The translations under genes and the position numbers were made by a program. 64,000 nt of DNA from an uncultured Clostridia bacterium (GTDB taxonomy: Bacteria; Bacillota; Clostridia; Christensenellales; UBA1242). Where the stretch lies: contig CALWNC010000002.1 in NCBI GenBank assembly GCA_944382715.1, forward strand, positions 8,738 to 72,737, written 5' to 3'. Positions within the stretch are counted from its first letter, which is position 1, and every line of letters starts with the position of its first letter. Positions 2,919-41,492 of the stretch are shown piece by piece. Below the pieces are notes generated by a model that searched no databases, was not told the origin of the DNA, and saw only the letters and a program-made list of their open reading frames with translations.

Positions 2919-2933
2919 AAGATAGGAGAAATT

Positions 2934-6278: not shown

Positions 6279-6306
6279 TTAGAATTTAAATGTATAGGAA
6301 GAGTTA

Positions 6307-7857: not shown

Positions 7858-7902
7858 AAAAAACGCAAAATTTATGGAAAAATTGCTAAAATTTATGTAA
7901 AT

Positions 7903-8175: not shown

Positions 8176-8307
8176 ATTTCACCTTATTTTAATTTTAGCA
8201 TAATGTTTTTTATATTTCAATTAATTTAATAATATTTTATATTTTGGTTATTGACTTAGCCGTTAATGTATGTTAGAATTTATATAAAGAAGGAGAAAGG
8301 ATAGAAA

Positions 8308-8943: not shown

Positions 8944-8947
8944 AAAA

Positions 8948-8992
8948 AAGATGAAATTCTTTAATGCTATTAAGGGATTTCATCTTTTTTGT
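8948..8992. terminator. bidirectional terminator between convergent genes
   Basis: Stem aagatgaaat / atttcatctt, flanked by an A-run and a T-run. Confidence 0.6.
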
Positions 8993-9050
8993 TTATAATA
9001 TTACGTTTTAATTTTAATATTTTATTAAGGTAATTATAATTTCATATTAT

Positions 9051-17197: not shown

Positions 17198-17515
17198 ATG
17201 AAAAAAGAATTTACTTATGATGATGTTATTTTTAGGTTTGGATATTATAGAAATAAAAATAATTTATCAGCAAGAGATTTAAGTTTGCAACTTGATTATG
17301 GAGCATCACAGGTTAATAGAATAGAGAGAAAGAAAGTAGAATTAAAAGTTTCGACGCTTTTAAAATTTATGGAACTTGTAGGGATAACTCCACTTGAATT
17401 TTTCTATCCAGATTTAGAAAGTTATAAATATGATATAGAACTTATAAAAATACAATCAAATTTATCAAGTGAAGATAAACAAATGTTAATAGCACTGGCA
17501 AAGAAAATTAAGTAG
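17198..17515 (+). CDS. XRE-like HTH protein (105 aa)
   Basis: NNLSARDLSLQLDYGASQVNRIERKKVELKVSTLLKFMELVGITPLEFF. Confidence 0.7.
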   Translation: MKKEFTYDDVIFRFGYYRNKNNLSARDLSLQLDYGASQVNRIERKKVELKVSTLLKFMELVGITPLEFFYPDLESYKYDIELIKIQSNLSSEDKQMLIALAKKIK

Positions 17516-17545: not shown

Positions 17546-18083
17546 ATGATAAATGCAAAAGAAAAAGAAGAGATAGATAATCTAGTTAAGAGATTCAAGT
17601 TAAATAATGACATGGAAGCCTTTGAAACACTGTATAAGAAAACAAGTAGAGAGATAGCGACCTTTTTAAAATATGCAGGAGCAGATGAATTTACTATAGA
17701 CGATGTGTTGTCCACAACATTTATGCTGGTTTATCAAAAGGCAAAACATAAAGTTAAATGCAAAGATTGTTATTTTTGGATATTTAAAGATAGCAAAATA
17801 TACATTATACAATTATAATAGGAAATTTAAAAGAGAAACAAGCTATGAAACAATTGAATTTGAAATTGAAGATAGAAAGCAGAGTAATTTTGAGGAATAT
17901 GTATCAATAAAAGATTTGATAGATAATCTTTCGAATATGGAAAAGCAAATTTTGCAGTTAAAAGTTTATCAATCTATGACATATAATCAAATTGCCGAGA
18001 TTTTAAATATATCAAAATCGACAGTAATAAGAAGATATGACAGAATAAGAAAACTGATAGAAAGGATAAACAAAGATGAATGA
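17546..18083 (+). pseudogene. ECF-type sigma-70 family factor split by a +1 frameshift
   Basis: The region-2-like part (17546-17818 frame) and the rest lie in frames offset by 1. The second frame carries FGYLKIAKYTLYNYNRKFKRE plus region 4, LSNMEKQILQLKVYQSMTYNQIAEILNISKSTVIRRYDRI. Removing one A from the run at 17743-17746 restores one ORF. Confidence 0.75.
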
Positions 18084-18735
18084 GAAAATTGAAAAAGAGA
18101 TTGAAGAATATTTTGAATCGAATGCCCCAAAGCCAAGTGAAAAAACATATGAAATGACGCTAAAAAAAATTGAAGAAAATTTAGCAGGCTCAACTGCTAA
18201 GAAAAAAATCTCTTCAAAGCTAAAACTAATCATGAGTTTGTCTATAATTTTGGTGGTGGCATTGTCTGTGGTGCTTGGAGTATTGATAACTAAAAATAGT
18301 GGCAGTAAAAGGCATTACTATATGGAAAATGAGTTAGTAAGTGTGGATATATCCGAAGTAGAGGTTCAAAAATACATAAATGACAATTATCCAAAGTATA
18401 ATTTTTTATTTAGTGAAGAATATGAAATAGAAAATTGCTATTCTTATAATTATAAAAATGCATTAACAGTGCTAAATTTTACTGCAGTAAAGAAAGAAGT
18501 GCCATATACAGAAATAGAATTTAAATTAATAACTGATTATTATTATTTGTACGCAGAAGATGAAAACTATAAAAAATCAGCAACAGTAGAAAGTAACAGT
18601 GAATATACGATGTATTATACTGAAGTTTCCGAAATATATTCGACATATGGTTATGCTCTTTTTGAGTATCAAGATTATAGAATATATTTGAAATTCGACA
18701 TAGTAGACAAAAACATCTTAGAAAATTTCAAATAA
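18076..18735 (+). CDS. putative anti-sigma factor (single-pass membrane protein)
   Basis: ATGA start/stop overlap with the sigma gene. Short cytoplasmic N-terminus, one TM (LIMSLSIILVVALSVVLGVLI), then an extracellular domain. Confidence 0.55.
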   Translation: MNEKIEKEIEEYFESNAPKPSEKTYEMTLKKIEENLAGSTAKKKISSKLKLIMSLSIILVVALSVVLGVLITKNSGSKRHYYMENELVSVDISEVEVQKYINDNYPKYNFLFSEEYEIENCYSYNYKNALTVLNFTAVKKEVPYTEIEFKLITDYYYLYAEDENYKKSATVESNSEYTMYYTEVSEIYSTYGYALFEYQDYRIYLKFDIVDKNILENFK

Positions 18736-18798: not shown

Positions 18799-19635
18799 AT
18801 GAAGAGAAGTTTTTTATCAATATTAACTGCATTAATAATGATACTATGTGGAAATTTATTATTGTCAAATGAAAGTGCAAACGCAATGTCAAGCGTAAGA
18901 TACTATGGAGAAGTTAATTACTCAGAAACTGACCCAGGTTCGAATATAACATATGTAACATATGATATTTACTATGACAGTTATGAGATGGACGATACAC
19001 ATTTAGAAAGATTGTGCCCAAACTATGAAAATGTCAATCATGCAAATTCTTGTGCACCAATGGCGGCAACGATAATAGTTGGATATTATGACTATGAGTT
19101 TGAAAACCTTGTTCCAAACTATTCGACATGCTATTATTATAATGGAACTTATGGTTATAGACCAAGGTCAAGTGAAGTGCAAGATGTAAAAGACCAACTC
19201 TATACGCTAATGGGAACAAATACTGAAAGCCCGGGAACATCAGTCGCACAATTCAAATCCGGCTTTACAAGCTATGTAAATAGTAAGGGCTTAAACATAA
19301 GTTATAATTCTTGTGGAAATACATTTAACTTGCAGACTGCAATTAATTATTTAAATCAAGGACAGCCAATAGCAGTGTTTGTTAGCGGGTACGAATATTT
19401 TCCAGAAGTGGGACTGTATAGAGAAGACGGACATTTTTCAATGGGAGGACGAAGTAGTACCAACACCCATGTATTTGTGGCATATGGATATAGACAATAT
19501 AGGTATTATGACGAGAATGGGCTGTTTAAAACAGAAAACTATCTAGTAGTTGTGTTTGGTGACGGAACTCAAGGACTACTTTCTATAGATAGGGTAACAA
19601 ATATTGATGAAGCATATGCAATAGACATTTATTAA
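18799..19635 (+). CDS. secreted papain-fold cysteine peptidase-like protein (C10/C39-like)
   Basis: Signal peptide MKRSFLSILTALIMILCGNLLLSNESANA. Candidate catalytic Cys in NSCAPMAATIIVGYYD and His in NTHVFVAYGY. Confidence 0.5.
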   Translation: MKRSFLSILTALIMILCGNLLLSNESANAMSSVRYYGEVNYSETDPGSNITYVTYDIYYDSYEMDDTHLERLCPNYENVNHANSCAPMAATIIVGYYDYEFENLVPNYSTCYYYNGTYGYRPRSSEVQDVKDQLYTLMGTNTESPGTSVAQFKSGFTSYVNSKGLNISYNSCGNTFNLQTAINYLNQGQPIAVFVSGYEYFPEVGLYREDGHFSMGGRSSTNTHVFVAYGYRQYRYYDENGLFKTENYLVVVFGDGTQGLLSIDRVTNIDEAYAIDIY

Positions 19636-19870: not shown

Positions 19871-20230
19871 ATGAAGAAGGTAAAGGAGATATTAAAAATC
19901 TATAGAATAAATAAGACTTACAAACGGGATTTAGAAAATGAGCTAGCTAAAGAAGTGGAAAATGTGGACCATCGAAAATTTCTCGAAAGAGAACTTAATC
20001 AAGTAGTCGAAATAATTGAAGATGTCGATAAAACTATCTCATCTTTAAGTCAACCAAACAAAAGTTTAATTTTTTATAGGTATATAAAGGGTATGTCTTA
20101 TGAAAGTATTGCTTTCAGGTTAAATTATTCCGTGCAAAGAATATATCAACTTTTAAATTTAGCACTAAATGAATTTCTAGAAAAATATATTAACATACAA
20201 AAAGAAAAAATAAGAGAAGAAAAAGATTAG
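19871..20230 (+). CDS. small sigma-70 region-4-like DNA-binding regulator (phage late-activator RinA/ArpU-like size and layout)
   Basis: About 120 aa. C-terminal LSQPNKSLIFYRYIKGMSYESIAFRLNYSVQRIYQLLNLALNEFL. No region 2. I prefer the ATG at 19871; the track starts at TTG 19850. Confidence 0.6.
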   Translation: MKKVKEILKIYRINKTYKRDLENELAKEVENVDHRKFLERELNQVVEIIEDVDKTISSLSQPNKSLIFYRYIKGMSYESIAFRLNYSVQRIYQLLNLALNEFLEKYINIQKEKIREEKD

Positions 20231-20251
20231 AGTAAATTAGAGTAAATTTTA
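20226..20251 (+). promoter_or_regulatory. 26-nt conserved element, copy 1 (tandem TAGAGTAAAT x2)
   Basis: attagagtaaattagagtaaatttta is identical to 28322-28347. It overlaps the regulator stop codon, 55 nt upstream of the RHS start. Confidence 0.55.
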
Positions 20252-20256
20252 ATTAT

Positions 20257-20296
20257 CCTGTGAATTAGGTAGAACACCTACCGAGTAAATCACAGG
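20257..20296 (+). promoter_or_regulatory. 5' leader hairpin whose 3' arm overlaps the RHS Shine-Dalgarno
   Basis: Outer stem cctgtga / tcacagg and inner stem ggtag / ctacc. The SD ggag begins inside the 3' arm. Confidence 0.4.
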
Positions 20297-20305
20297 AGAA
20301 AAATT

Positions 20306-23300
20306 ATGTATAAAAAGATAGACAAAAGTAATTGCATTGCAGTAACACAATGCGAAGGCTACGCAAAAGTTGAATACACGCCAAGTTTTGATAGTAGCCA
20401 CATTAAACTAATAAGGTCACTGCTCGTATTTAATCGAAGTAACATAACTGGCACATACGACTTTGATGTAGTGGTAAACGGAGCAGTCATTGACCAAATA
20501 AAAATGGATAGCGACAGTGTAAAGGCAAAAATTTGCATTGATATAACCGATGAACTGAGTGACCTTTTAAAGTCAGGTGACATAACACTTGAAATAAAAT
20601 TAAACGGTTTGCAGGGACTTACCAGCAATGGAAGTTTTGAAGTAATAAGCCAGTATATTCCTTCAAAACAACAACTTTCACAGGGAAGTTATAAAGGTAT
20701 TTCAGCAAAAAGAGCAGGAAGTGTCAGTGTTAATCTCGTGACGGGCGAATTAAGACTTGTGCATACTGACGAAAGTAGCAATGAAAAAGTATTGCCACTA
20801 GGTGAAAGCCATATATTTAATTCGTTTGACGATAATGAAAACAAAGTTAGTGTAAAACTTGAAAATGACGAAATATCACTTCCAAAATTACACACGGGAA
20901 AGGGCTGGCGACTTGCGCACGAGCAGTATCTTGTTAAAGAGCGAGCCGAAAGTGGAATGTTAGATAATAACACGGCGACAAGATATACTCTTGTTGCAGG
21001 TGACGGGAGTGAAATTCAGTTTGACCAAAAATACTACTATGAAAAGCAGGTTAATGGTGAAACTGAAAAGATATATTTGTGTCCAAGCCAAGTAATTGTT
21101 GACTATGACGAATCACTATCATTTGTAGAAGACGGAGAAAATCAAACGAAGCACGAAGTTAAAAGTGAAATTGTAAGCGATAGCGACCTAGTATTGACGC
21201 CAAGACTAGAAGCTGAAAACGGCACAGAAAAAATTTCAAAGGACATTGAAGAGATTGAGAATATAAAGGCTCAAATTGAAGAATTAAAATCGGCAAGAGA
21301 AAGCGTGATTGAGAGTTTGAAACTCAATAGATATGCAGAAAGAGTCTTTTTAAAGTCAACAAGTGCGTCTGATGAGCAGACAAAAGGTCAACTGCTTAGC
21401 TATTTGGCACAGGCAAAAAACTTTGAACTAACAAAAGAAAACTATGAAAAAGAAAAAGACTATGCACTAAACAGTATTAACTATAAAATTGAAAGTAAAA
21501 ACGAATTAAATGGAAAAGAGAATAAGACAAGTAAAGACAACATTCAATTGAATATGTTAAATAGAGAAATCCAAATTTCAGAGACAAACTACAAGTATAA
21601 GTGGGGTGAAGGTTGGAAAGACTTGTCGCAGAACACAAGTATTAGCTGTGGAAATAATGAAAATATTGACGAGCTTGTTTCAAAGATAAATTCTTTAGAG
21701 AACGCGGGAACAATTGACGGTGTTACTCTAACTGAATATGACTGTAAACTAATAAATAGTACCAAATCATCGCTACTACTTAGCCTAGACTTTACAGATG
21801 AGCAAAAGAGTTATCAAGAGTATCAGCTCAGCATTGAAAAACAAGAACTTTGCAAAAATTTGGATAATTACAGCCAAAACATTGAAAAACTAATTTATAC
21901 GCTAAATGAATATAAAAAGCAAGTTCCAGAATACTATTTGTCAAATGCCGAAAAAACACTAATGTTTGGGTTTGCAAAATTCAGGGAGCAGTCAATGGCA
22001 GTAAGTAATCTAAAAAGTTCGCAGGATATCGTAAACTTAATTGAAAATGCAATTCAAGAAAATCTGCTTGAAAATTTGGATTTGGGCGAGAGCGTGGAGT
22101 ATGAAATTAGTAACAATGTGGACATTTATAGACTGATTGCAATTTTTGATAATTATAGTAATGCAGTATATGTCGAGTATAGTGACGGCGAAAGCTATGA
22201 CGAGAGCAAAATCGTATCGCTTAGCGACTCAGACGACTCAAAAATTACTTTTAAATATAATGATGACGGCTTGCTAGAGAGTATAGAAAGTGATAGGGGA
22301 AAAAGGACAAATTACTTTTATACTGGCGAAAGATTGACAAAAATCACATACTCAGACGAAACCGAGTCAAATTATGAGTATAACGCAGATGGGAAACTTG
22401 TAAAGGTAACAGACAGTTCGGGCTACTTTGTTCGTTTTGACTACTCTTTGGCAAACCATATCAAAGTTTATGAGGGAAACAAGTACAGCACCATAAGTAA
22501 AGAGCCAGAGGTTGCAGTAAATGAGTCAGGCACAGCGAGTGAACTTGAAAGACTGCTTTGTGACATAGAACTTTACGACTATAAAATGACAACAATAACT
22601 GATAGAAAAGAGAATATTCAGACATATATTTTTGATAGATTTGGCAAGGTCGTAACAGTTTATGAAGGCAAAATTAACGAGCAAAACTCACAGGCTAGTA
22701 ATGTAAAGTCAGTTTCACATTCATATAAAGACAATAAACGCACAGTAACCGTAAAAAAACTTCCAAATGCAAAGAATTTGCTTCGAGTTTACACGGAAAA
22801 TTATGTAGGTGACGAAGTTTATGCTGGCGATGATGTCTACCCAACACTTTACGAAAATATGCCCGATAAAACTATCTATAGTGTAAGCGCCACAAAATCT
22901 TTTACTGTAAAGCAAGATGTTGTCCAACTTTTAAATCTTGGTACAAAAAGCTTTGTATTTTCTGGTTTTGCAAAGGCAGACGCTGGCTACACTGACATAT
23001 ACGGCGAAGATTCGTATGACGAACTTGAAAATATGTTAATTTCAAACTCAGACACAAATAGACAAAACCGAAAGTTTGAACTTAGAGCAAGTTTAACTTT
23101 TGAAGATTATAAAACTAGAGAAATAATTATTCCGTTTGACTGGATGCAAACTAACTGGCAGTATGCAGAACTCCCAATTGTAATAGGCGAAGATGAAACA
23201 TTAAAAAATATATCTCTAAAATTTGACTATACAGACAATATTGGAGGTGCAAAAATCTTTGGTTTTTCACTTAAAGAAGCCGAAGTGGAGCAAAGCGAAT

Positions 23301-26203
23301 ATAATAGCAAAGGTCAGCTAATCGCCCAAACAAATAGCTTGCAAAAGACAAAAATAAACTATAACTTCTCCGAAGAAACAAATTTGCCACTTTCAGCGTC
23401 ACTCACATATAAGGGCAAAAACTTTGTAATAAAATATTTTTATGGCTCAAATAAAGAACTTTTAAAGAGTATAGACTATAAAGGAAATGTGCAAGAATTT
23501 GAGTATAACGACAAAGGACAAAAGATAAAAACAATCTCATATAACACAAACGACCCGACAACAAAACGCGTAGAAGAAATCAAACTAGACGAAACGGGCA
23601 AGCAAACTTCTCTGCTTGACGAGTTTGGTAGAGAAACACAAACCTACAATTACCTTAGTGGAACAAATATCACCTCCTCTATAACTAATAACAATGGGCT
23701 AAAACTCAGTTATTGTTATGACCCACTAAGTGAAAATTTAACGGGAATTTGTGCAAGTGCAGGCTATGAGAGTAATGAAAATATTTACGGCTACACTTTG
23801 GGAGAACTTACCAGTTTAACCCACAACGATTTTTCAGTAAACTTTGCCTATGATGGATACGGCGAACTTAAATCTATTAAAATAGACGGCGAAGATAACG
23901 ACTATGTAACCTTATCTCAAAACGATAACGGCGAAATAAAAACATATGCTAGTGGAGAACTTGTTGAAACCGTATTGGATAGTGATGGCGATGTAACAAA
24001 AGTGAATTTTGGGACGGAAACTGAAACCGAAACAATAGTTACCAATACTTACGATGACGCCAAAAATTTAACCAGCCAGACGGAAAACTTATATGGCAAA
24101 CAATTTACTTATTATTATGGTCAAGACGCCTTTGGCAATGAAAATTCAGTCGAAAAGACAGAAATTGACAGTAGTGGAGAAATACCAGTAGAAACAAAGC
24201 TTTATGGCATAGAGTCCACATATGATAAAACGGGGCTAATAAAAAGTGCAGAAGTTTCATTTGAAGGTGTTGAAGATAAAGAAATCACTCTGCTTTCTGA
24301 GTACGAATACGATGAAACAACACCAGAAAGCCAACTCAAAAAGATTAACTATACCGATTATTATCCAACATCGGCTACCTATGGAAGAACTTACAAAACC
24401 TATCAAGAATTAGAGCAGGATAATTTTGGCAGAATTAAAAGGGTGTCACTTGGAGATAGCGTTGGCGAAATTTTAAGCAAAAATTATAGTTACGCCAAAA
24501 AAGGCGAAAACACTTCAGACCTAGTTTCAAGCATATGGTACGGAGCAAATGGCGAAATGAAAGATTCCTTAAAATTTGCCTATGACCAAAGCGGAAATAT
24601 AACCAAAGTTTATGAAAATGGCATATTAATTGCAAGGTACGAATACGACGAACTTTCAAGAATAGTGAGAGAAGACAATAAAAAACTTGACAAGACCTAT
24701 TTTTATGAGTACGATAAAGGTGGAAACATTGTAAGAAAGTTAAGCATAAAGTTTAACTTGTCTAACAAAGAAACAATAACAACTTCGCCAACCGAAATTC
24801 GTTATAGCTACAAGTCGAACGGTTGGAAAGACCAACTGCTTAGCTATAATGGTGAAGAGTGTGAGTACGACAAACTTGGAAATCCTACACTTTATAGGGA
24901 TAAAGCTCTCACTTGGGGGAAACTCAGGAACCTAGAAGAATTTGTTATTGATGAAAATAACAGTGTTTCATATACATATGATAAAAATGGTATTAGGAAT
25001 ACTAAAACTAGTACCATAAAAAGTACAAATGAAGAAAATTCCGAAATAACTACAATAGTAACCAAAAAGTTTTTGTATAATGGCACAAGACTATTAATGC
25101 AAAATAATGGTGACTCAGCGACCAATAATGGCTACAACTCAAAATTATACTTTCACTATGGGGTAGATGGGCTAATTGGATTTACACATGTAAAATCTAC
25201 TTATTTAATATACAATTATTACTATAAGAAAAATGCCCAAGGAGACATAATAGGAATATATGATTCCAGTGGGAAAGAAATAGTAAAGTATTACTATGAC
25301 GCATTTGGGAATGTAAAGGCTTATTATAATTCAAGTGCAAATTACTACTATGAAATTACTGAAACATCTTCAACCACAAATGCAGTAATAGGCAGATTAA
25401 ACCCATTTAGGTACCGTGGCTATTACTACGACCAAGAGACCAAGTTGTACTATCTAAACAGCAGATATTACGACCCAGAAACAGGCAGATTTATAAATGC
25501 CGATGATATTAGCTACCTAGATAAAGACACAATAAACGGCTTAAACCTATATGCATATTGTGGAAATAATCCTGTAATGAACATCGACCCAAATGGACAT
25601 ATTTTTCTTACTTTTTTAATATTTTCTATTATTACAGGTGCTATTGTTAGTGGAGTATCCAGTGGTGTTAAATCATATATTAGTGGAGAAAGAGGAAGCG
25701 ATTTAGTAGGCTCTGTTTTAAGTGGAGTTGTTGAAGGTGCAGGCTTAGGAGCAATAATGGCATTAGGTGGTGCCGCTGGATTAGTGGCTACTGGTATTAG
25801 TGTTACTAATTTTGCATTATCTTCAATAGCTGCCCTGAGTGTTTCTATGGCGATTGGTTTTGGAACAGGTCTATTATCTTATTCATTAGATAATGTAATA
25901 AGCAAAGACAAAAATTGGAATTTTAAAGACTTTTTGAAATCGGGGATTTCTTCTAGTATTCAATCCGTTATTACATTTAGCTTCTCTTACTTAGGTGGTA
26001 AATTAGGTTTATTTAATAACAAATTAACTAATATGTCATTTCAAGATTTTATGCAATATAAATTTAATATTACAGGAGATATATCTATTTTACAATCTAT
26101 AATTTATGGATTCGAAATTTTATTTTCAAATAATATTACCAAATACATTTTTATTAATTTACCTGGATTCATATTTAGAAATGCAGTTAATAAGGTTATA
26201 TAG
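20306..26203 (+). CDS. RHS/YD-repeat polymorphic toxin (1965 aa) with a hydrophobic glycine-zipper C-terminal domain
   Basis: Many YD repeats, for example YNDDGLLESIE..YFYTGERLTKITY..YEYNADGKLVKVTD. Canonical RHS core end PFRYRGYYYDQETKLYYLNSRYYDPETGRFINAD...YAYCGNNPVMNIDPNGH. A 200-aa Gly/Ala/Ser-rich hydrophobic tail follows. Confidence 0.9.
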   Translation: MYKKIDKSNCIAVTQCEGYAKVEYTPSFDSSHIKLIRSLLVFNRSNITGTYDFDVVVNGAVIDQIKMDSDSVKAKICIDITDELSDLLKSGDITLEIKLNGLQGLTSNGSFEVISQYIPSKQQLSQGSYKGISAKRAGSVSVNLVTGELRLVHTDESSNEKVLPLGESHIFNSFDDNENKVSVKLENDEISLPKLHTGKGWRLAHEQYLVKERAESGMLDNNTATRYTLVAGDGSEIQFDQKYYYEKQVNGETEKIYLCPSQVIVDYDESLSFVEDGENQTKHEVKSEIVSDSDLVLTPRLEAENGTEKISKDIEEIENIKAQIEELKSARESVIESLKLNRYAERVFLKSTSASDEQTKGQLLSYLAQAKNFELTKENYEKEKDYALNSINYKIESKNELNGKENKTSKDNIQLNMLNREIQISETNYKYKWGEGWKDLSQNTSISCGNNENIDELVSKINSLENAGTIDGVTLTEYDCKLINSTKSSLLLSLDFTDEQKSYQEYQLSIEKQELCKNLDNYSQNIEKLIYTLNEYKKQVPEYYLSNAEKTLMFGFAKFREQSMAVSNLKSSQDIVNLIENAIQENLLENLDLGESVEYEISNNVDIYRLIAIFDNYSNAVYVEYSDGESYDESKIVSLSDSDDSKITFKYNDDGLLESIESDRGKRTNYFYTGERLTKITYSDETESNYEYNADGKLVKVTDSSGYFVRFDYSLANHIKVYEGNKYSTISKEPEVAVNESGTASELERLLCDIELYDYKMTTITDRKENIQTYIFDRFGKVVTVYEGKINEQNSQASNVKSVSHSYKDNKRTVTVKKLPNAKNLLRVYTENYVGDEVYAGDDVYPTLYENMPDKTIYSVSATKSFTVKQDVVQLLNLGTKSFVFSGFAKADAGYTDIYGEDSYDELENMLISNSDTNRQNRKFELRASLTFEDYKTREIIIPFDWMQTNWQYAELPIVIGEDETLKNISLKFDYTDNIGGAKIFGFSLKEAEVEQSEYNSKGQLIAQTNSLQKTKINYNFSEETNLPLSASLTYKGKNFVIKYFYGSNKELLKSIDYKGNVQEFEYNDKGQKIKTISYNTNDPTTKRVEEIKLDETGKQTSLLDEFGRETQTYNYLSGTNITSSITNNNGLKLSYCYDPLSENLTGICASAGYESNENIYGYTLGELTSLTHNDFSVNFAYDGYGELKSIKIDGEDNDYVTLSQNDNGEIKTYASGELVETVLDSDGDVTKVNFGTETETETIVTNTYDDAKNLTSQTENLYGKQFTYYYGQDAFGNENSVEKTEIDSSGEIPVETKLYGIESTYDKTGLIKSAEVSFEGVEDKEITLLSEYEYDETTPESQLKKINYTDYYPTSATYGRTYKTYQELEQDNFGRIKRVSLGDSVGEILSKNYSYAKKGENTSDLVSSIWYGANGEMKDSLKFAYDQSGNITKVYENGILIARYEYDELSRIVREDNKKLDKTYFYEYDKGGNIVRKLSIKFNLSNKETITTSPTEIRYSYKSNGWKDQLLSYNGEECEYDKLGNPTLYRDKALTWGKLRNLEEFVIDENNSVSYTYDKNGIRNTKTSTIKSTNEENSEITTIVTKKFLYNGTRLLMQNNGDSATNNGYNSKLYFHYGVDGLIGFTHVKSTYLIYNYYYKKNAQGDIIGIYDSSGKEIVKYYYDAFGNVKAYYNSSANYYYEITETSSTTNAVIGRLNPFRYRGYYYDQETKLYYLNSRYYDPETGRFINADDISYLDKDTINGLNLYAYCGNNPVMNIDPNGHIFLTFLIFSIITGAIVSGVSSGVKSYISGERGSDLVGSVLSGVVEGAGLGAIMALGGAAGLVATGISVTNFALSSIAALSVSMAIGFGTGLLSYSLDNVISKDKNWNFKDFLKSGISSSIQSVITFSFSYLGGKLGLFNNKLTNMSFQDFMQYKFNITGDISILQSIIYGFEILFSNNITKYIFINLPGFIFRNAVNKVI
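24352..24771 (+). repeat. RHS core segment duplicated at 27702-28122
   Basis: Direct nucleotide alignment at offset 3350. Only scattered substitutions and a 1-nt indel near the 3' end. Confidence 0.9.
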
Positions 26204-26211
26204 TTGTTATT

Positions 26212-26697
26212 ATGATAATAATAAAAAAAAATAAAAGAATTATAATAAATATTTCTCTAATAGTTGTTTTTGGATTTATATTTATATCCACTATGGCTTA
26301 TTTCTTTGGTTGGAGTTTTGATTTAAATTCATTTTTGATTTATTTAGCGATTATAAGTACCACGACAATTTTAATTTTATTTGTTTGTGTTATTTTAATT
26401 AAATTAAATAAGAAAAAATTTGTTTTTACAAAAGAAACAGTTAAATTGTATAATAAAAATGAATTAATTTTTGAATTGGATACAAATGACATTGAAAATT
26501 TAATATATATTAGGTTTTTATGGTTTATCCTCTTTCAAATAGGTGCGGGATACTTACATATGAAATTTATTAATAATGAAAATATTAAACCATCAATTAA
26601 ATTTGCAAATGGAGATAAAATTTATTCTTTATCAGTTTCATTAAAAGAGGCTAAGTTAATAGCAAATCTTTTAGATATAAAAATTAAAATTAAGTAA
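26212..26697 (+). CDS. putative cognate immunity protein (membrane protein, 161 aa)
   Basis: Starts 8 nt after the RHS stop. Two to three TM segments. The position is typical of RHS immunity genes. Confidence 0.55.
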   Translation: MIIIKKNKRIIINISLIVVFGFIFISTMAYFFGWSFDLNSFLIYLAIISTTTILILFVCVILIKLNKKKFVFTKETVKLYNKNELIFELDTNDIENLIYIRFLWFILFQIGAGYLHMKFINNENIKPSIKFANGDKIYSLSVSLKEAKLIANLLDIKIKIK

Positions 26698-26859
26698 ACT
26701 TATTAAAATATTTGATAATATTTTTTATCATAAATAATAATATAGATATCTTGAAACATATAAAATAGTTTTAGAAAAATTCAGTTTTAGGCATAACAAT
26801 GTGTTGGTGATATTTTGACATTTTGGTATGTTGCACTTTAAGGGAGAGTTTGTTTATTT

Positions 26860-27156
26860 ATGAAAAAATATAAATTGACAGAAGAAGAAAAAGTTGTTGT
26901 GAACAAATTTTGCAACTTTAGTATCCCTTTTATATTTAAGGCAGGGAAATATTGTAGATATATGGAGTATTTTGAATATGTTGATTCTGAAATTTGCTAT
27001 AAACTTTTAAAAGGTAAATGTATTGATGAAAAAAATTATCAAATGATTGTTTTAAAGGGTGATAATATAAAAAGAGAAGAGTTAGATAATAATGCCCTTG
27101 AATTTTATGATTTATATTTACTTCTTAAAGATATGGTTAAAAAATATCATGGCTAA
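26860..27156 (+). CDS. hypothetical small protein (98 aa), possibly an orphan immunity protein
   Basis: ORF preceded by gggagag. No motif. The call rests on location in the toxin locus only. Confidence 0.4.
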   Translation: MKKYKLTEEEKVVVNKFCNFSIPFIFKAGKYCRYMEYFEYVDSEICYKLLKGKCIDEKNYQMIVLKGDNIKREELDNNALEFYDLYLLLKDMVKKYHG

Positions 27157-27653
27157 ACTTTTTACGAAACAAGATAGAGCATAAAGAAGAAAATTTTTGT
27201 TAATAAGTATGGTTGTTTTAAATATATTTACTTAGAAAAGCAGGTTTCCCGCTTGCAAGGTATCAAGTTACCTTGTGGCAAATTACTTAAATTGTTTATT
27301 TAATGTACCTAATAAAATTAAATAATAAATTAAAATTAAATAAATAAAATATAAGACAAAATAGCAATACATATCTAAATAAACCCAAATAAAAAATAAT
27401 AAAAAATAATTATAAATAATTTGTATTTTAGGATTATTAAGAATTAGTAATATATGTAAAAATAATAAAAAACAAAAATAAAAAATTTAATAAGGAGGAT
27501 CGCAAAAATAGAATTTAAAGATTTAAAAAAATACGCTCCATCGTTTACATATATTATGAAAATTAATAATCCAAAATATAAAATTTATGATTATATAAAA
27601 ATAAAATAAAAAAAATAAGTAAAAAATTATTCTATAGTTTAATATTAATAAAC

Positions 27654-27692
27654 AAAAACCCAGAGAAAAAATATATCTCTGGGTATTTTTAT
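27654..27692. terminator. bidirectional hairpin terminator
   Basis: Stem cccagaga / tctctggg, flanked by an A-run and a T-run. Confidence 0.5.
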
Positions 27693-27701
27693 ATTTAATT
27701 T

Positions 27702-28122
27702 TACCGACTATTACCCAACATCGGCTACCTATGGAAGAACTTACAAAACCTATCAAGAATTAGAGCAAGATAATTTTGGCAGAATTAAAAGGGTGTCACT
27801 TGGAGATAGCGTTGGCGAAATTTTAAGCAAAAATTACAGCTACGCCAAAAAAGGCGAAAACACATCAGACCTAGTTTCAAGCATATGGTACGGAGCAAAT
27901 GGCGAAATGAAAGATTCTCTAAAATTTGCCTATGACCAAAGCGGAAATATAACCAAAGTTTATGAAAATGGCATATTAATTGCAAGGTATGAGTACGACG
28001 AACTTTCAAGAATAGTGAGAGAGGACAATAAAAAACTTGACAAGACCTACTTTTATGAATACGATAAAGGTGGGAACATTGATTGACAAGTTAAGCCAAA
28101 AGTTTAACTTGTCTGACAAAGT
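27702..28122 (+). pseudogene. orphan RHS core fragment (copy of aa ~1350-1490 of the main RHS gene)
   Basis: Near-identical to 24352-24771. It has no start context, and a 1-nt indel gives a premature stop (…YDKGGNID*). Confidence 0.85.
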
Positions 28123-28258
28123 TTCTATTTACAAATGATAAAAAGAAAATTTTTTAATTTTCAACATTAATGCACAAAAGAAGAAAATAATTTAAATAGA
28201 CCAGAAATCTATTTTAATTATGAGAAAAACAAAAGAAGAAAATATTATTATTTAAAAA

Positions 28259-28291
28259 ATATGAAGTAAATTTTATTGCTTCATATTTTTT
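28259..28291 (+). terminator. rho-independent terminator preceding the second conserved element
   Basis: Stem atatgaag / cttcatat followed by a T-run. Confidence 0.55.
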
Positions 28292-28321
28292 ATGTCTTTT
28301 AAAAAATAGCTATGTAAAAAT

Positions 28322-28347
28322 ATTAGAGTAAATTAGAGTAAATTTTA
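28322..28347 (+). promoter_or_regulatory. 26-nt conserved element, copy 2
   Basis: Identical to 20226-20251. A leader hairpin follows at 28361-28385 (ttgataagc / gcttatcaa). Confidence 0.55.
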
Positions 28348-28410
28348 AATATACTTAGAATTGATAAGCAGGCGAGGCTTATCAAAAAAAGACTAAGGAG
28401 GAAAAACAAT

Positions 28411-28446
28411 ATGGAAATTTTAGTGGAGATTTATACATATGAATAG
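28411..28446 (+). other. 11-codon upstream ORF (MEILVEIYTYE) carrying the only strong SD of this unit
   Basis: aaggagg at 28395-28401 lies 9 nt before the ATG at 28411. The uORF stop overlaps the ATG at 28439 of the next ORF, which has no SD of its own. Confidence 0.35.
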
Positions 28447-29044
28447 CTTTATTAACACACTTCAAAACTATCCTGTAAGAATTGTAGTAGTATCTGTGCT
28501 TGTAATAATTCTTACAAATCTTTTAAAGGTACCTATAAAAAGTGTAATTCAAAATTCGACTGAAAAATTAAAAAATATGTTAAGTGTAGTGATTATATTT
28601 ATTCCACTTATTTTGTCATTTTGCCTAACAATTTTAAACTCAGGATTATTTCACGAAGTTTGGTTTTCAGAACTAGTTTTTAGCGATGTTATAACATCTT
28701 GGTTATTGTCGCTTTCACTCTACTCAATTGTATCTAAATTATGGGCGTTAGTTACTGGAGTTTTAACTGGTAAAACTGATATTGACCAAATGCAAAAGGA
28801 CATTCAAGATATTACAAGTGAACTTAATTTGGATAAAGAAACTCTTACTTCACTTAACAATACACTAAGTAATTTAGTTAAACATAGAGATAACATTATT
28901 TCAAATAATGATATTGACATGGAAGAAGTTTTGAATTTAGATTTTCAAATAAAAAATCTTGAAGAACAAAAATCAACATTAAATCTAAAAATTGTAAATA
29001 GCGAAAAACAAATGAAAAGCTATAAAAGAAAACTAAAAAAATAA
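28439..29044 (+). CDS. polytopic membrane protein with C-terminal coiled coil (201 aa; holin-like role is speculative)
   Basis: Three to four hydrophobic segments in residues 10-110. A heptad-like charged tail follows (LNLDFQIKNLEEQKSTLNLKIVNSEKQMKSYKRKLKK). Confidence 0.55.
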   Translation: MNSFINTLQNYPVRIVVVSVLVIILTNLLKVPIKSVIQNSTEKLKNMLSVVIIFIPLILSFCLTILNSGLFHEVWFSELVFSDVITSWLLSLSLYSIVSKLWALVTGVLTGKTDIDQMQKDIQDITSELNLDKETLTSLNNTLSNLVKHRDNIISNNDIDMEEVLNLDFQIKNLEEQKSTLNLKIVNSEKQMKSYKRKLKK

Positions 29045-29057
29045 AAAGGAGAAAATT

Positions 29058-31313
29058 ATGAATTTTAAAAATAGAAACGCAACAAAACCAAATAGAGTAA
29101 CCATTACGCCAGAAAATGGTACTGCATTTACAGCAACAATTTCAAGAAATGATAGTCCAGTTTACAACCAAGAAGGGACTATGCTAACAGCAGAAGTATT
29201 TAATCAAATGTGTGATGACATTAATGCTAGTAATTCATTTGTTACGGGCGCAGAAAGTAGACTTCAAACGGTTGAAAGTGCCATTAATAACTTAGAGGTA
29301 AAAACCATTGTTGTTGACGAAAATACAAATCCTTCAGCTTCAATTTCGTCGTCAACTGATAACAAATTTAAAACAATTACATTTAATCTTCCAAAGGCAA
29401 AGCAAGGGAAATCATATAGAAATATGGGTGAATGGGTAAACACAAAAAGCTATGTTAATGATGAAAATTTTATTGATACAGTTTTTCTCAATGGTTGCAC
29501 ATATTTTTGCAAAATCAGCAATAACAATGTTCAGCCAGTTGACAACTCTGATTCTCAGTATTGGGGTTTGCTGGCTCGCCGTGGTGGGGAAGGCTCAGTT
29601 ACTATTGTTGATAATTTAAACAGTACAAGTTCTGACGCAGCTCTTTCAGCTAATCAGGGTAATTACATTAAGCAAAATTATGCTTTAAAATCGGGCAGTG
29701 TATATAAAGGAACTTGCCAAACTGCACAGTCAACAACAACGAAAGAAGTTGTCTGTGATGGGTTTGTCCTAGAAACTGGTGCAACCATTGATGTCAAATT
29801 TGATAATGCATCTGTATCTAGTGCGTACCTAAATGTAAACTCAACTGGTGCAAAGCAAATTAAATATCAATCGACTTCATATGGTCTATCCAATATTAGT
29901 GGGAGTTCTTATATTAGTGTTAGTTTTGGAGCTTGGAGTTCTGGCGACATCGTTAGATTTATTTATAATGGAACTTACTGGGTTGAAATATTTAATGTGT
30001 CAAGGGGAGTTAATGTTGGAAAACAAAATGCCTACAGTGCCGACAGTGCAACTTACGCAACATATGTTCGCACAAAATACGAGTCACCAACAGCCTCTAC
30101 CAAAAGATACTTAACTTTTGTTGATAGCAACAATTCTTCTTCACTTTCTGAGCAGTTATATACTGACGATGGAATTTCTTACGACAGTTACAACAACACT
30201 CTTCAAGTTGAAAATCTTTCTGACGGAACTATTAGTAAGCCTGTTTCTGAAATAATTTCTACAACTCAGCTTCCAATTGGTGCAATTTTTCAATCTGCAG
30301 TAAAACTAAATGACAGTGCATACCATGCACTTGATGGTTCTAGTTACTCGCAAAGTGGCATCTATTCAGAGTTTGTTTCTTGGCTCAAAGCACAGGTGTC
30401 TGCCGGTAATGCCACTACTTGCACTGAAGATGAGTTTTCAAATTCAGTTTCAAATACTGGCAACTGTGGAAAATTTGTAATAGACAATAACAACAATACT
30501 TTTAGGTTTCCCAAAATTACAAGATTTGTGCAGGGTATCTCTTCTGACAGTGAGATAGGCAATTCTATTGTTGCAGGTATTCCAAATATTAAAGGTGGAT
30601 TGGAACATACAGTTTCACTTGAGGGAACAAAACCAGCAAATGCTACGGGTTGTTTTAGCTGGAGTTTTTTGCAAGAAGGACATCATTATGAAATTAAATC
30701 AGGTGGCAATTCATGTGACCCAGTATTTAATGCCAATGACGGTTCAGCAATTAAGGGATTATACAGAGATGACGCAACTACAGTTCAGCCACAGGCAACT
30801 CAGTACCCATTTTACATAGTAGTTGCAAATTCAGCCAAAACAAGTGTTCAAACCAACATTGACAATATAACTAGTGACATAAATAACATTAATAGCAAAA
30901 TAGATAATAAATTTTGTTGTGATGGTTTTTTTATAAAAAATAAGACTTATACTTTTAATGAGAATTTATCTACAAATGTAATAGTAAAAGTGCCAGAAAT
31001 AACCAACAATTTAGAAGTTGAAACATTTACAATTAACACAAATGGAAGACCTCTTATTGTTTCAGGAAGCATATTTGGAACTTTTCAAAATATGTATAAT
31101 GCACAATTGAAGATTTGTATTGATGGCGTAGAAACCGAATTATTTGACACTTGGCAAGATGTTTCACATTGTTTTGAATTTACAAGAATAATCAAGGGAA
31201 TTCAAAAAGGTGATCATAGTGTGAAATTTATTATTAAAGGAAATGGACAAACAGATCAAACCTTTAATATTCCAAATCATGCAACAAATTATTTTGCAAT
31301 ATATGAAATTTAA
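29058..31313 (+). CDS. phage tail-fibre / receptor-binding-like protein (751 aa)
   Basis: N-terminus KPNRVTITPENGTAFTATISRNDSPVYNQEGTMLTAEVFNQM. Fibre motif VDNLNSTSSDAALSANQGNYIKQNY. Collar-like segment PIGAIFQSAV..YHALDGSSYSQSGIYSEFVSWL. Confidence 0.6.
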   Translation: MNFKNRNATKPNRVTITPENGTAFTATISRNDSPVYNQEGTMLTAEVFNQMCDDINASNSFVTGAESRLQTVESAINNLEVKTIVVDENTNPSASISSSTDNKFKTITFNLPKAKQGKSYRNMGEWVNTKSYVNDENFIDTVFLNGCTYFCKISNNNVQPVDNSDSQYWGLLARRGGEGSVTIVDNLNSTSSDAALSANQGNYIKQNYALKSGSVYKGTCQTAQSTTTKEVVCDGFVLETGATIDVKFDNASVSSAYLNVNSTGAKQIKYQSTSYGLSNISGSSYISVSFGAWSSGDIVRFIYNGTYWVEIFNVSRGVNVGKQNAYSADSATYATYVRTKYESPTASTKRYLTFVDSNNSSSLSEQLYTDDGISYDSYNNTLQVENLSDGTISKPVSEIISTTQLPIGAIFQSAVKLNDSAYHALDGSSYSQSGIYSEFVSWLKAQVSAGNATTCTEDEFSNSVSNTGNCGKFVIDNNNNTFRFPKITRFVQGISSDSEIGNSIVAGIPNIKGGLEHTVSLEGTKPANATGCFSWSFLQEGHHYEIKSGGNSCDPVFNANDGSAIKGLYRDDATTVQPQATQYPFYIVVANSAKTSVQTNIDNITSDINNINSKIDNKFCCDGFFIKNKTYTFNENLSTNVIVKVPEITNNLEVETFTINTNGRPLIVSGSIFGTFQNMYNAQLKICIDGVETELFDTWQDVSHCFEFTRIIKGIQKGDHSVKFIIKGNGQTDQTFNIPNHATNYFAIYEI

Positions 31314-38569: not shown

Positions 38570-40171
38570 ATGGCTATATTTAATTTATTTAAGATTAATG
38601 AAACAAGAAACGAAATTTTTAAAGAATTATATAATTCATCTAATAAATTTTCTGTTACTTGCGATGGTGAAGAATTTATTTTGACTTTATATACAGATGT
38701 AGAACAGTATCAACCTACATCATTAAGTTGGAACTGGTTACTAACTGAGGCTAAATTGAATGTAAAAACGTATTTTAAACAGCCAAAAGCAATTTTATAT
38801 TTAGTATATAATGATATTATTTATGCATTGTCTTTTGGTAGTGCGTTTTATGATGTAGATAAATATTGTGATAAAGACTTTGCATTTAATTTTGCAAGAA
38901 AATTTAAATATAAAAAAATCAAGTCGACTTCACAGGCAATTCCAAGTTCTAATAGAAATAAAATAATAAACTCTTATGTAAATAACGAATATTTTGAATA
39001 TGATACGGGTGGTGCATATTTAAAAATTAAAGGTCAAATTGTTGTAGAAGATGGATTTGATTTATTTAAAAATAATATTGAGGTAGGAACCTCGATAAAA
39101 TTTTCTGTCAATAATCCATCTTTTGAAAAATTTATTGAAATTGTCAAATATGTATCTAAGAAGTTAGAAGAGTCAACAGATCAATCTTTAATTCCCTTAT
39201 TTCAACCTATAAGAGATAAAGACAAAATAGAACAATTAAATAGTTTTATGTACAATAATTTTGATATAGATTCTTGTAATATTACATTTTCAGATTTTGA
39301 TATCATAGGAACTAATGAATATTTTTATTCTCAAAGTGCAGAGTATCGTGTATATTGTGATGGGAAAAGAGGTAGTCTTGACTATCTTTCTTTAGATAAA
39401 ATAAAAGAATTTTGTTTAAATAAAAATATAAATTATAAAGAAAAGTTTTTTGATATTTATGTTAAACTGGAAGGAGAGAATAAAGCACATTCAATTAGAG
39501 AGTTTATTGATTATCCAATTGAAAATGAGAACGCAGTTTTAATAAAAGGTGAATGGTATCAATATAATTCTGATTTTATAAATTCATTGGACGAATCATT
39601 AAATCATTTGAATTGTATTCATGATAAAAGATTCGATTGGAATGAAGATTTTTACAAAGATTTTATAAATAGTAAGAAACAAGAATTTAAATTAAAAGAG
39701 AAGTATAAAGATTATGATGATGAAGAATTAGTAGAAGCCATAACAAAAACCTTTTATAAGGAAAGGGTATTTAATGAGTATATAGCAGATAAGTATAACT
39801 TTATTTGTGGAGATAGAGTATTGACAAGACTTGATGGAGGGAATAGTATCGAACTAAATGATTTGTATAAAGACAATTGCATATATGCAGTAAAAATAGG
39901 AAATAGTTCAGGTAAATTATGTTATTGCGTAGACCAAATGGTAACAGCTATGAATTGTATAAAAAATAAAGTTGTCGAATTTAAACATGATATAAAAGAA
40001 GTATGTATAGTTTTATTAATAAAAAAACGTAGTGGTTATCCCGAAGGAGATGATAAATTTGATATAACAAGTCTGAAATATATAGCATTAAAGAATGCAC
40101 TGAATAGTTGGATGAAAGAAGCTAGAAATTTATTTTATGAGCCAAAAGTTATTATTGGTTATACTGATTAA
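38570..40171 (+). CDS. 533-aa orphan protein, possibly of the sporadically distributed TIGR04141/DUF6119-like type (recalled from memory, unverified)
   Basis: Stand-alone gene with its own terminator. N-terminal AILYLVYNDIIYALSFGSAFYDV...DFAFNFARKF and C-terminal IYAVKIGNSSGKLCYCVDQMVTAMNCI blocks. Confidence 0.35.
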   Translation: MAIFNLFKINETRNEIFKELYNSSNKFSVTCDGEEFILTLYTDVEQYQPTSLSWNWLLTEAKLNVKTYFKQPKAILYLVYNDIIYALSFGSAFYDVDKYCDKDFAFNFARKFKYKKIKSTSQAIPSSNRNKIINSYVNNEYFEYDTGGAYLKIKGQIVVEDGFDLFKNNIEVGTSIKFSVNNPSFEKFIEIVKYVSKKLEESTDQSLIPLFQPIRDKDKIEQLNSFMYNNFDIDSCNITFSDFDIIGTNEYFYSQSAEYRVYCDGKRGSLDYLSLDKIKEFCLNKNINYKEKFFDIYVKLEGENKAHSIREFIDYPIENENAVLIKGEWYQYNSDFINSLDESLNHLNCIHDKRFDWNEDFYKDFINSKKQEFKLKEKYKDYDDEELVEAITKTFYKERVFNEYIADKYNFICGDRVLTRLDGGNSIELNDLYKDNCIYAVKIGNSSGKLCYCVDQMVTAMNCIKNKVVEFKHDIKEVCIVLLIKKRSGYPEGDDKFDITSLKYIALKNALNSWMKEARNLFYEPKVIIGYTD

Positions 40172-41479: not shown

Positions 41480-41492
41480 TAAGGAGTTTGGT

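Follow-up and report, generated by a model that had tools for sequence, protein, structure and literature searches.

A probable phage-derived regulon linking an RHS toxin, a conserved membrane protein and tail fibers in uncultured Clostridia

A 64,000-nucleotide (nt) stretch of DNA from an uncultured Clostridia bacterium (GenBank assembly GCA_944382715.1, contig CALWNC010000002.1, positions 8,738 to 72,737; hereafter the window) carries two gene units behind identical copies of a 26-nt element. The first unit encodes an RHS polymorphic toxin and an immunity-like membrane protein, and the second encodes a small membrane protein, here termed mem, and a phage-type tail fiber (Table 1). A small regulator with only sigma-70 region 4 is encoded directly upstream of the first copy of the element, which begins at the regulator stop codon. 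The element is very likely a phage late-promoter operator, and the RHS toxin, mem and usually fibers recur together in diverged relatives of the locus. We read the locus as a conserved regulon of phage origin in uncultured Clostridia; it is not a prophage. The best overall explanation, which we consider somewhat more probable than all others together, is that a captured phage switch controls an RHS toxin that mem would release and the fiber would target.

The locus lies on a metagenome scaffold of 334 kb and is also present in sister assemblies. An earlier note on this DNA, made from the sequence alone, had given coordinates for its open reading frames (ORFs), all of which are correct. It had also described two units, each behind the same 26-nt element and each with a leader hairpin, an arrangement that is indeed seen at 20227 and 28323.

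The shared operator and its phage counterparts

The 26-mer TTAGAGTAAATTAGAGTAAATTTTAA occurs exactly twice in the window, at 20227 and 28323, against zero copies expected in shuffled sequences, and similarity around the two copies extends over 47 nt at 89% identity. It is composed of a pair of 10-nt direct repeats (TTAGAGTAAA x2) and a -10-like hexamer. Operator 1 precedes the RHS and immunity genes, while operator 2 precedes mem and the fiber gene. A sigma-70 promoter scan flagged neither copy, which fits an activator-dependent promoter devoid of a -35 box yet is uninformative.

A 20-mer of the operator is found, with all 20 nt identical, in three IMG/VR contigs (L077, L078 and L079). On L077 (48% G+C), the 20-mer is located at the stop codon of a 134-amino-acid (aa) homolog of the regulator and is followed by TGTGTTATAAT, an ORF bearing an HNH motif (CxxC...HH...CxxCH) and an ORF resembling a small terminase subunit. 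L078 contains at least five tandem ATTAGAGTAA units and TGGTATAAT ahead of an HNH-like ORF, after which come ORFs of 117 aa and 551 aa, the latter of the size of a large terminase subunit. Because the same 20-mer sits at a regulator stop codon, in front of a -10 box and an HNH/terminase late operon, the 26-nt element is very likely the operator of a phage late promoter. Both promoters of the window would then be captured phage late promoters. G+C content is 48% in the phages that share the operator exactly and about 27% at the window locus. The third contig, L079 (161 kb, 31% G+C), has the 20-mer at 2886-2905, after a third TTAGATAAAA unit; there it sits at the end of a coding region, just before a Shine-Dalgarno (SD) sequence and start codon, with no regulator homolog nearby.

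Further relatives of the regulator, with 28-46% identity, are encoded by 49 IMG/VR phage contigs. Of the 21 phage relatives examined, most display a conserved motif where the regulator gene ends, directly after its stop codon, and a terminator-like hairpin is present in many as well. For many of the relatives in the L011-L058 branch, the conserved motif at the stop codon is GTGnTATTATGATAnCATCG, and in many of these a terminator-like hairpin and late genes follow. This promoter-plus-terminator layout suggests an antitermination-like leader in that branch. The relative in Clostridium phage phiCs5676-1 is encoded near the right end of the linear record, at a distance of about 1 kb, and the left end starts with the terminase gene.

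The regulator

The regulator gene call is identical to that of the source metagenome. Its Sigma70_r4_2 match is limited to residues 57-106 (E = 2.7e-6, above the Pfam cut-off), and it also matches phrog_36 (‘transcriptional regulator’, 1.7e-12) and phrog_248 (‘transcriptional activator’, 6e-8). It scores below the curated RinA model TIGR01636 (16.7 bits versus a cut-off of 31.9) and is a distant relative rather than a RinA equivalog. Models of the extracytoplasmic function (ECF) sigma type align only to the C-terminal two-thirds of the protein, far under their cut-offs. In the related loci L009 (47% identity) and L073 (45%), a homolog is encoded directly upstream of the RHS gene; in L065, a homolog precedes mem.

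Likeness to phage late activators, proposed in the earlier note, is borne out by the PHROG matches and by the element, which is the operator type that those phages place downstream of the activator gene. Phage late activators of the RinA, ArpU, LtrC and Alt type are likewise small, carry a C-terminal helix-turn-helix resembling sigma-70 region 4, and are encoded immediately upstream of their target promoter; the phage relatives carry the same TTAGAGTAAA repeats before the HNH/terminase operon. Their targets, however, are packaging, morphogenesis and lysis genes, whereas here the targets would be the RHS/immunity and mem/fiber units. We infer from the sequence that the regulator activates the promoters behind both elements. 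It is not the only regulator in the vicinity, as had been proposed, given that an HTH_3 gene, a split ECF sigma factor and an anti-sigma-like gene are also present.

Related loci and gene linkage

Exact matches to the fiber came from the same strain only, and distant fiber homologs led to L009. Scans seeded with mem gave further loci, all from uncultured Clostridia or metagenomes. Linkage was counted only for loci that were found through mem or fiber homology, not through RHS, and that had enough flanking sequence. An RHS gene of the same subfamily is present in eight of the nine informative loci (the window, L009, L060, L062, L070, L073, L080 and L082), the exception being L065. Outside the window, mem is found near the RHS gene in L009, L060, L062, L070, L073, L080 and L082.

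Gene order varies among these loci. L080 has the order of the window, with RHS, an immunity-like ORF, the operator, mem and a fiber. L009 has the regulator homolog directly upstream of a 1811-aa RHS protein (32% identity over nearly the full length) and a small ORF, with two fibers and a mem homolog about 4 kb from the RHS part. L060, L061 and L062 have the operator ahead of mem and a fiber; the RHS genes of L060 and L062 are convergent, and a tRNA gene is adjacent. In L073, one strand carries the regulator, RHS and an immunity-like ORF, and the opposite strand carries mem, a fiber-like protein and a 283-aa protein. In the compact loci L070, L081 and L082, mem and RHS share one operon, the mem gene stopping 11 nt short of RHS; these loci lack a fiber and have a different putative regulator. 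L065 consists of the regulator, TTAGAG-type repeats and mem only, amid housekeeping genes.

Regulator and operator covary from locus to locus. L009, L060, L062 and L080 have TTATAGnAAA x2 and L073 has ATTAGAAnGC x2-3, while L065 has TTAGAG/TTAGAT spaced 10-11 nt apart. Within one locus, the same repeat variant stands before the RHS gene and before mem or the fiber gene. L009, for instance, has TTATAG(C/T)AAA x2 and TATAAT both after the regulator stop codon and before the first fiber gene, and L073 has ATTAGAAnGC repeats both before RHS and before mem. In all, 14 operator instances were aligned, and clade-specific variants occur in 10 further instances. Co-occurrence of regulator, RHS, mem and fiber, which the earlier note had proposed to examine by comparative genomics, is thus seen in diverged loci, with matching clade-specific operators before both units. 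Co-regulation and functional linkage are well supported by these sequence comparisons.

This recurrence bears directly on the possibility that the fiber and mem are the leftover tail end of a decayed prophage unrelated to RHS, the second element being a leftover duplication. The fiber is of phage type, the regulator family is phage-borne, and an RHS fragment and AT-rich junk lie between the two units, all of which such a remnant could account for. Against it, the four gene families and their matching operators recur in diverged loci in varied order and orientation, the related loci have no recognizable head, capsid or tail-tube genes (Pfam), and mem was not found in phage collections and is operonic with RHS in L070 and L082. 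Within the window, a Pfam scan of 48 of the 51 ORFs of at least 100 aa recognized no phage structural, tail-like, type VII secretion system (T7SS) or secretion genes, in agreement with the earlier note, which had seen no other phage structural genes nearby. The three ORFs left out lie near 34.7-35.9 kb and 11 kb, and two of them are AAA_33 in the source annotation; about one-third of the scanned ORFs have no Pfam family match. A decayed prophage remnant is contradicted by the comparative data and is considered highly improbable. It is well supported instead that RHS, mem and usually fibers constitute a conserved functional module and not prophage debris.

Some features of the related loci concern their surroundings. 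In L009, positions 1-9615 encode an S24 repressor, a rolling-circle Rep protein (REP_ORF2-G2P, 8581-9615) and large membrane-anchored proteins, one with Flg_new and LRR repeats. A P-loop protein at 7289-8113 reads like a Zot-type assembly ATPase and has no Pfam match. This neighborhood may be an inovirus-like prophage. The mem/fiber unit of L060 (~9530-9800) and L062 (~7640-7660) begins right after the 3′ end of a tRNA gene (…CTGGACGCACCA). In L060, two copies of the tRNA 5′ half flank a stretch of about 150 nt, resembling the scar of an integration event.

The RHS toxin and its immunity gene

Full-length homologs of the RHS protein, with 30-34% identity, are found in L009, L070, L073 and L082. 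The subfamily shares an N-terminal domain of about 130 aa, predicted to be mostly β-strand, and, early in the shell, an inserted helical region of about 300 aa that spans roughly residues 300-600. The Rhs-associated core is located at residues 1687-1765 and ends with the motif NPVMNIDPNG (residues 1755-1764, nt 25568-25597). The C-terminal domain that follows (nt 25598-26200) is Gly-rich and hydrophobic. In each of the six family members examined, the core-end motif is immediately followed by hydrophobic Gly-zipper segments, and some members have an additional soluble domain beyond them. The C-terminal domains differ among the six members, and a different small ORF comes after each.

The 161-aa immunity-like protein matches no family. 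A small, non-conserved ORF occupies the same position after RHS in every related locus, and an orphan RHS cassette in L070 has its own small downstream ORF but no mem. With a shell, a core-end motif, a variable C-terminus, a putative immunity gene and orphan cassettes, the RHS protein and the 161-aa ORF fit an RHS/YD polymorphic toxin system.

The earlier note had remarked that the toxin lacks a signal peptide and an LXG/WXG-type N-terminus. This holds, as there is no such Pfam or NCBIfam match and no hydrophobic signal-like N-terminal segment. Export by a T7SS was considered and rejected, with no LXG/WXG match in RHS and no EssC-type gene among the window ORFs scanned. Cell-wall anchoring domains (LPXTG, SLH, CWB) were detected neither in RHS nor in the fiber. 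A search with residues 1-665 returned a single homolog and no useful alignment.

The membrane protein mem

The three hydrophobic segments of mem and its charged tail of about 95 aa, which matches coiled-coil proteins only, agree with the membrane protein with a coiled-coil tail described in the earlier note. An acidic N-terminus, a basic first loop (K-PIKK...KRK) and a charged tail fit a predicted N-out/C-in topology, like that of class I holins. The family comprises 95 clusters at the 50% identity level (E < 1e-3) among 1.84 billion representatives searched with HMMER, and the clusters listed are mostly 190-220 aa in length. No consistent Pfam or PHROG family emerged among the 50 members scanned. 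Comparisons of mem with Pfam, PHROGs, PADLOC and PDB sequences returned only coiled-coil noise, including a PbeC match confined to the tail. It was not found in IMG/VR by three pattern scans and has no tblastn match in 50,697 phage genomes.

Another role to consider is that of a second immunity factor, or of a chaperone for the hydrophobic C-terminal domain of RHS in the producer. Every RHS protein of the subfamily begins this domain with Gly-zipper hydrophobic segments, and mem is a membrane protein that is always nearby. Nevertheless, mem is 25-40% identical and has the same architecture across loci with differing RHS C-terminal domains and immunity genes. As mem stays constant while these change, it is not an immunity protein, and this role was rejected. 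Furthermore, the orphan RHS cassette of L070 does without mem, L065 has mem without RHS, and the toxin domain is enclosed in the RHS shell in characterized RHS proteins. An immunity or chaperone function of this kind is therefore very hard to credit.

The conserved two-gene module of mem and RHS, both of which contain long helical, coiled-coil-like regions, could also be read as a non-lytic system. Here, mem would act as a translocator or anchor whose coiled coil recruits the RHS insertion, and RHS, plus fibers where present, would be exported or tethered at the cell surface for contact-dependent action, as a signal-peptide-independent analog of WapA. Holin-type proteins such as TcdE and those of the type X secretion system (T10SS) can mediate non-lytic secretion (PMC9527704, PMC12150058), and no lysin gene is present. 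A 200-aa protein with three transmembrane segments is nonetheless a slim basis for passing a folded cocoon of about 220 kDa across the membrane and the wall. The absence of detected LPXTG, SLH or CWB domains from RHS and the fiber, and the fact that phage fibers normally assemble in the cytoplasm, also speak against surface display, which appears improbable.

The L065 locus has an additional feature of note. After mem it encodes a 661-aa multi-pass membrane protein (2897-4882) that reads like an LtaS/sulfatase-type enzyme, so that away from RHS loci mem may have a function in the cell envelope.

The tail fiber

The 751-aa protein was described in the earlier note as phage-fiber-like, and its anchor, central domain and predicted fold are all common to phage fibers. 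The N-terminal anchor of about 60 aa is shared by the window fiber, the fibers of related loci and those of the phage contig L076, a genuine, siphophage-like contig on which the anchor-bearing fibers come after a 1477-aa ORF whose length would suit a tape-measure protein. Residues 400-618 are 36-49% identical to phage fiber proteins, one of which is encoded after a tail knob of the phi29 gp9 type. Residues 620-751 form the confident part of the AlphaFold model, a β-sandwich whose best Foldseek matches are C1q/TNF-like heads (BclA, the receptor-binding protein of phage 1358 and the spike knob of phi812). Foldseek returned 243 viral matches for the fiber at E <= 1e-3, led by tail fiber and minor tail proteins. 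The distal parts are polymorphic, with Gp10_C in L064, an alanine zipper and tail-fiber PHROGs in L073, and Gly_rich_2 in L080, and several fiber genes are followed by small proteins resembling fiber chaperones. No tail or baseplate genes were recognized in the window or the related loci.

The phage affinities of the fiber and the operator raise the possibility that the locus is a hitch-hiker or satellite. The island would be switched on by a phage, whether resident or infecting, or by a tailocin with genes outside the locus; that particle would supply lysis and a tail on which the fibers dock through their phage-type N-terminal anchor. RHS would leave in the burst, and mem would serve, for example, in lysis timing or superinfection control. 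The operator is identical over 20 of 20 nt to that of genuine phages, the fiber anchor is that of L076, and endolysin and tail genes were not found in the locus. The position of L060 and L062 beside a tRNA gene, like mobile islands, and of L009 beside an inovirus-like element would also suit a satellite. However, the window, L009, L065 and L073 have their own activator gene and hence need no helper for expression, the difference in G+C content from the phages with the identical operator makes a shared host unlikely, and mem is linked specifically to RHS rather than to fibers or phages. Dependence on a helper phage is accordingly judged unlikely, and the captured switch with its own release and targeting functions is preferred.

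Leader hairpins and translation signals

Each operator is followed by a leader hairpin (Table 1). The 3′ arm of hairpin 1 reaches into the RHS SD sequence, and an analogous leader hairpin precedes the RHS gene of L009 (z = -6.3). A hairpin of the AGATAAG/CTTATCT type with an SD sequence is positionally conserved in L009, L060, L061 and L062. This conservation was judged from single-sequence folds and reading of the sequences, and RNAalifold gave no consensus structure for seven short AU-rich leaders. If transcription starts about 7 nt past the -10 box, both mRNAs would begin with the hairpin. Each transcript therefore probably has a stable hairpin at its very 5′ end, continuing into the ribosome-binding site. 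Stem-loops at the 5′ end and SD-like sequences are mRNA stabilizers in Firmicutes, where hairpins guard against 5′-end-dependent decay.

The second leader also contains a short upstream ORF (uORF) between its first SD sequence and mem. Similarly, a first SD sequence with or without a short ORF is followed by a second SD sequence and the start codon of the mem/fiber unit in L060 (~9940-9985), L061 (~2660-2705) and L062 (~7760-7800). Such a uORF/double-SD layout may serve translational coupling or provide an mRNA-stabilizing SD.

Neighboring genes

Polysaccharide genes lie upstream of the locus; housekeeping genes and then an island of defense and mobile-element genes lie downstream. Rfam and tRNA scans of the window found nothing. 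The HTH_3 gene has a homolog of 48.5% identity in L073 (12322-12630), about 3 kb from the mem operon of that locus, and an S24 (LexA/CI-like) repressor is encoded at the edge of L009. Both may represent an upstream switch of the system; the HTH_3 protein would tentatively be a repressor, its membership of the system being suggested by this neighborhood.

An ECF sigma factor, anti-sigma and secreted-protein unit without an operator is located between the HTH_3 gene and the regulator. The ECF-type sigma factor is divided between two ORFs that overlap (17546-17818 and 17703-18083), which could point to a frameshift, a pseudogene or a misassembly. Next come an anti-sigma-like membrane protein (18076-18735) and a secreted 278-aa protein (18799-19635) that has a Cys/His motif (NSCAP...HVFVAYGY), no family match and no operator.

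The space between the two units holds a 98-aa ORF and an orphan internal RHS fragment. The former is a gene call in the source assemblies, has no homolog in related loci and is possibly an orphan immunity gene or an unrelated gene. RHS fragments also flank mem in L060 and L062. Together, the 98-aa ORF and the orphan fragment look like scars of RHS cassette recombination. The far end of the window (36000-64000) is a mosaic of defense and mobile-element genes.

Table 1. Coordinates of features in the 64,000-nt window
Feature	Position	Strand	Properties
Regulator, 119 aa, sigma-70 region 4 only	19871..20230	+	Sigma70_r4_2, phrog_36, phrog_248
Operator 1	20227..20252	+	TTAGAGTAAA x2; -10-like TTTAAT at 20248-20253; starts at regulator stop codon
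Leader hairpin 1	20256..20297	+	-18.2 kcal/mol, z = -4.6; matched by none of 200 shuffles
RHS polymorphic toxin, 1965 aa	20306..26203	+	RHS_repeat 1.5e-15; Rhs_assc_core (TIGR03696) 2.5e-20
Immunity-like membrane protein, 161 aa	26212..26697	+	Hydrophobic; starts 9 nt past RHS stop codon
Operator 2	28323..28348	+	Identical 26-nt copy; -10-like TTTAAA at 28344-28349
Leader hairpin 2	28354..28397	+	-16.8 kcal/mol, z = -3.2; first SD (AAGGAGG) after it
uORF, 11 codons (MEILVEIYTYE)	28411..28446	+	Behind first SD; overlaps mem start codon
mem, 201 aa	28439..29044	+	Three transmembrane segments, charged C-terminal tail of ~95 aa; proposed RHS release/export factor
Phage-type tail fiber/receptor-binding protein, 751 aa	29058..31313	+	N-terminal anchor, central homology, C-terminal fold
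98-aa ORF	26860..27156	+	Gene call in source assemblies
Orphan internal RHS fragment	27695..28121	+	96% identical to 24345-24644, 91% to 24737-24770
HTH_3 (XRE-type) regulator	17198..17515	+	Pfam HTH_3, E 3.3e-7
DUF6119	38570-40171		
SLFN/AlbA_2 with D12 methyltransferase	40613-42221		
Serine recombinase	42214-43698	-	
MazG-like and Schlafen-type helicase genes	44302-46531	-	
PIN_8	47005-48147	-	
ArdA	50613-51155		
PcfK/PcfJ	52573-54540		
HTH_3 and Flg_new repeat protein, 1040 aa	54915-58037	-	
WYL regulator; UvrD/HRDC helicase, 1373 aa	in the 36000-64000 island		

Comparison with known systems

The pathogenicity locus (PaLoc) of Clostridioides difficile (TcdR, TcdA/B, TcdE, TcdL) likewise combines a small sigma-related activator, a large signal-less toxin, a small putative release membrane protein and phage-derived parts (PMC12150058, PMC12485765). 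The parallel with PaLoc drawn in the earlier note stands as a functional likeness and fails for the regulator, TcdR being a full sigma factor with regions 2 and 4. The layout of PaLoc is also that of Clostridium perfringens UviA/UviB with the bacteriocin BCN5. TcdR, UviA and BotR are group-5 sigma factors of about 180-190 aa, whereas the window regulator has 119 aa and region 4 only. TcdE is a recognizable phage holin, while mem matches no holin family. In contrast to PaLoc and BCN5, the cargo here is an RHS polymorphic toxin of antibacterial type with a putative immunity protein, together with tail fibers.

A signal-less, RHS-containing Tc toxin of Yersinia entomophaga is released by phage-derived lysis functions in a dedicated subpopulation (PMC10847048, PMC10847046). 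This T10SS is Gram-negative, employs a holin, endolysin and spanin cassette, binds the receptor through its TcA translocator and is under other regulators. The window regulon, on the other hand, lacks a hydrolase or endolysin, and has phage fibers where a receptor-binding component would be expected. The nearest candidate for a peptidoglycan hydrolase, none of which was found in the regulon, is the 278-aa protein described above.

Tailocins (R- and F-type pyocins, diffocins) also use phage parts for antagonism, with a target range set by fibers, regulation of phage type and release by lysis. Polymorphic toxins can ride on phage biology as well, as seen in the MuF toxins of temperate phages (PMC5576092). 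Unlike tailocins and MuF systems, no sheath, tube, baseplate or head genes were found here, and the toxin is an RHS cocoon without a MuF fusion. A tailocin locus was rejected in view of the missing sheath, tube and baseplate genes, in the window and related loci alike.

Gram-positive RHS/YD toxins such as Bacillus subtilis WapA and the T7SS-exported LXG-RHS proteins share with the window toxin the shell, the core-end cleavage motif, the variable C-terminus, the adjacent immunity gene and the orphan fragment. The window toxin differs from them by having no Sec signal, wall-binding repeats or LXG/WXG domain, and by its distinctive N-terminus, helical insertion of about 300 aa, hydrophobic C-terminal start and obligatory mem partner. 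A comprehensive survey of polymorphic toxin trafficking does not mention holins (PMC3482391), and literature searches on RHS with holins or tail fibers in Firmicutes brought up no account of a regulon that joins RHS, a fiber and a membrane protein.

The window system works like PaLoc, UviAB-BCN5 and T10SS. It is a member of none of them, since it has no TcdR-type sigma factor, no recognizable holin and no lysin. It is best seen as a further form of phage-derived, regulated toxin release, and the odds that it constitutes a novel route of delivery are appreciable.

Proposed mechanism

The mechanism that we favor starts with the region-4-only activator, which would bind the tandem TTAGAGTAAA x2 repeats that replace the -35 region of the two promoters. 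Promoter 1, at the regulator stop codon, would drive RHS and the immunity gene, and promoter 2 would drive mem and the fiber gene. RHS and the fiber have no signal peptide, and mem is the one partner of the RHS subfamily in every locus type. Because the fibers lack signal peptides, a lysis-type exit would be needed. It is proposed that mem acts as a holin-like release factor, and that a membrane lesion or triggered autolysis frees the RHS cocoon and the fiber from a sacrificed producer, with the immunity protein protecting kin. Entry into the target membrane, or attack on it, is probably aided by the hydrophobic segments with which the RHS C-terminal domain begins, and the fiber probably provides binding to the target cell.

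A more specific version of this mechanism is possible but doubtful. RHS would form a tail-less, fiber-targeted bacteriocin, its helical insertion or N-terminus being coupled to trimeric fibers, and the particle would be freed by a new holin-like family under the phage late switch.

Several observations weigh against the favored explanation. mem has no holin-family match (Pfam, PHROGs) and was not found in the phage collections searched; with 201 aa, about 95 of them in the tail, it exceeds typical holins in size, and no endolysin or lysin gene is conserved beside it in any locus examined. L065 has the regulator and mem without RHS or a fiber, which makes a role of mem independent of RHS possible. 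The compact loci L070 and L082 have mem and RHS with a different regulator and without a fiber, so the fiber is dispensable for the core function. The AlphaFold model of RHS residues 1-320 is too poor for use (mean predicted local distance difference test, pLDDT, 42). All data are metagenome assemblies of a narrow clade, and the system is known from its genes. The two roles suggested in the earlier note, holin-like release by mem and the fiber as a cargo or targeting module for RHS, consequently fall short of being established.

Significance

To our knowledge, it is not known how Gram-positive RHS toxins without Sec, LXG or wall-anchor signals are exported and targeted. In the window locus and at least eight relatives, one RHS subfamily is coupled with the same conserved, uncharacterized membrane protein, and in most of them also with phage tail fibers and a phage late-gene switch. 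The parts list is short: an activator with a 10-nt repeat operator, a membrane protein, a toxin/immunity pair and a fiber. The system indicates that late promoters and activators of phages can be co-opted for a weapon that is not itself a phage, and extends the theme of PaLoc, BCN5 and T10SS to polymorphic interbacterial toxins in gut-type anaerobes. Toxins directed by fibers could serve as programmable narrow-spectrum antibacterials. If the bacteriocin version were true, the system would be a new way of delivering polymorphic toxins in Gram-positive bacteria, one that relies on neither Sec nor T7SS nor contractile machines. More generally, this gene set may explain how signal-less RHS toxins leave Gram-positive cells and find their targets.

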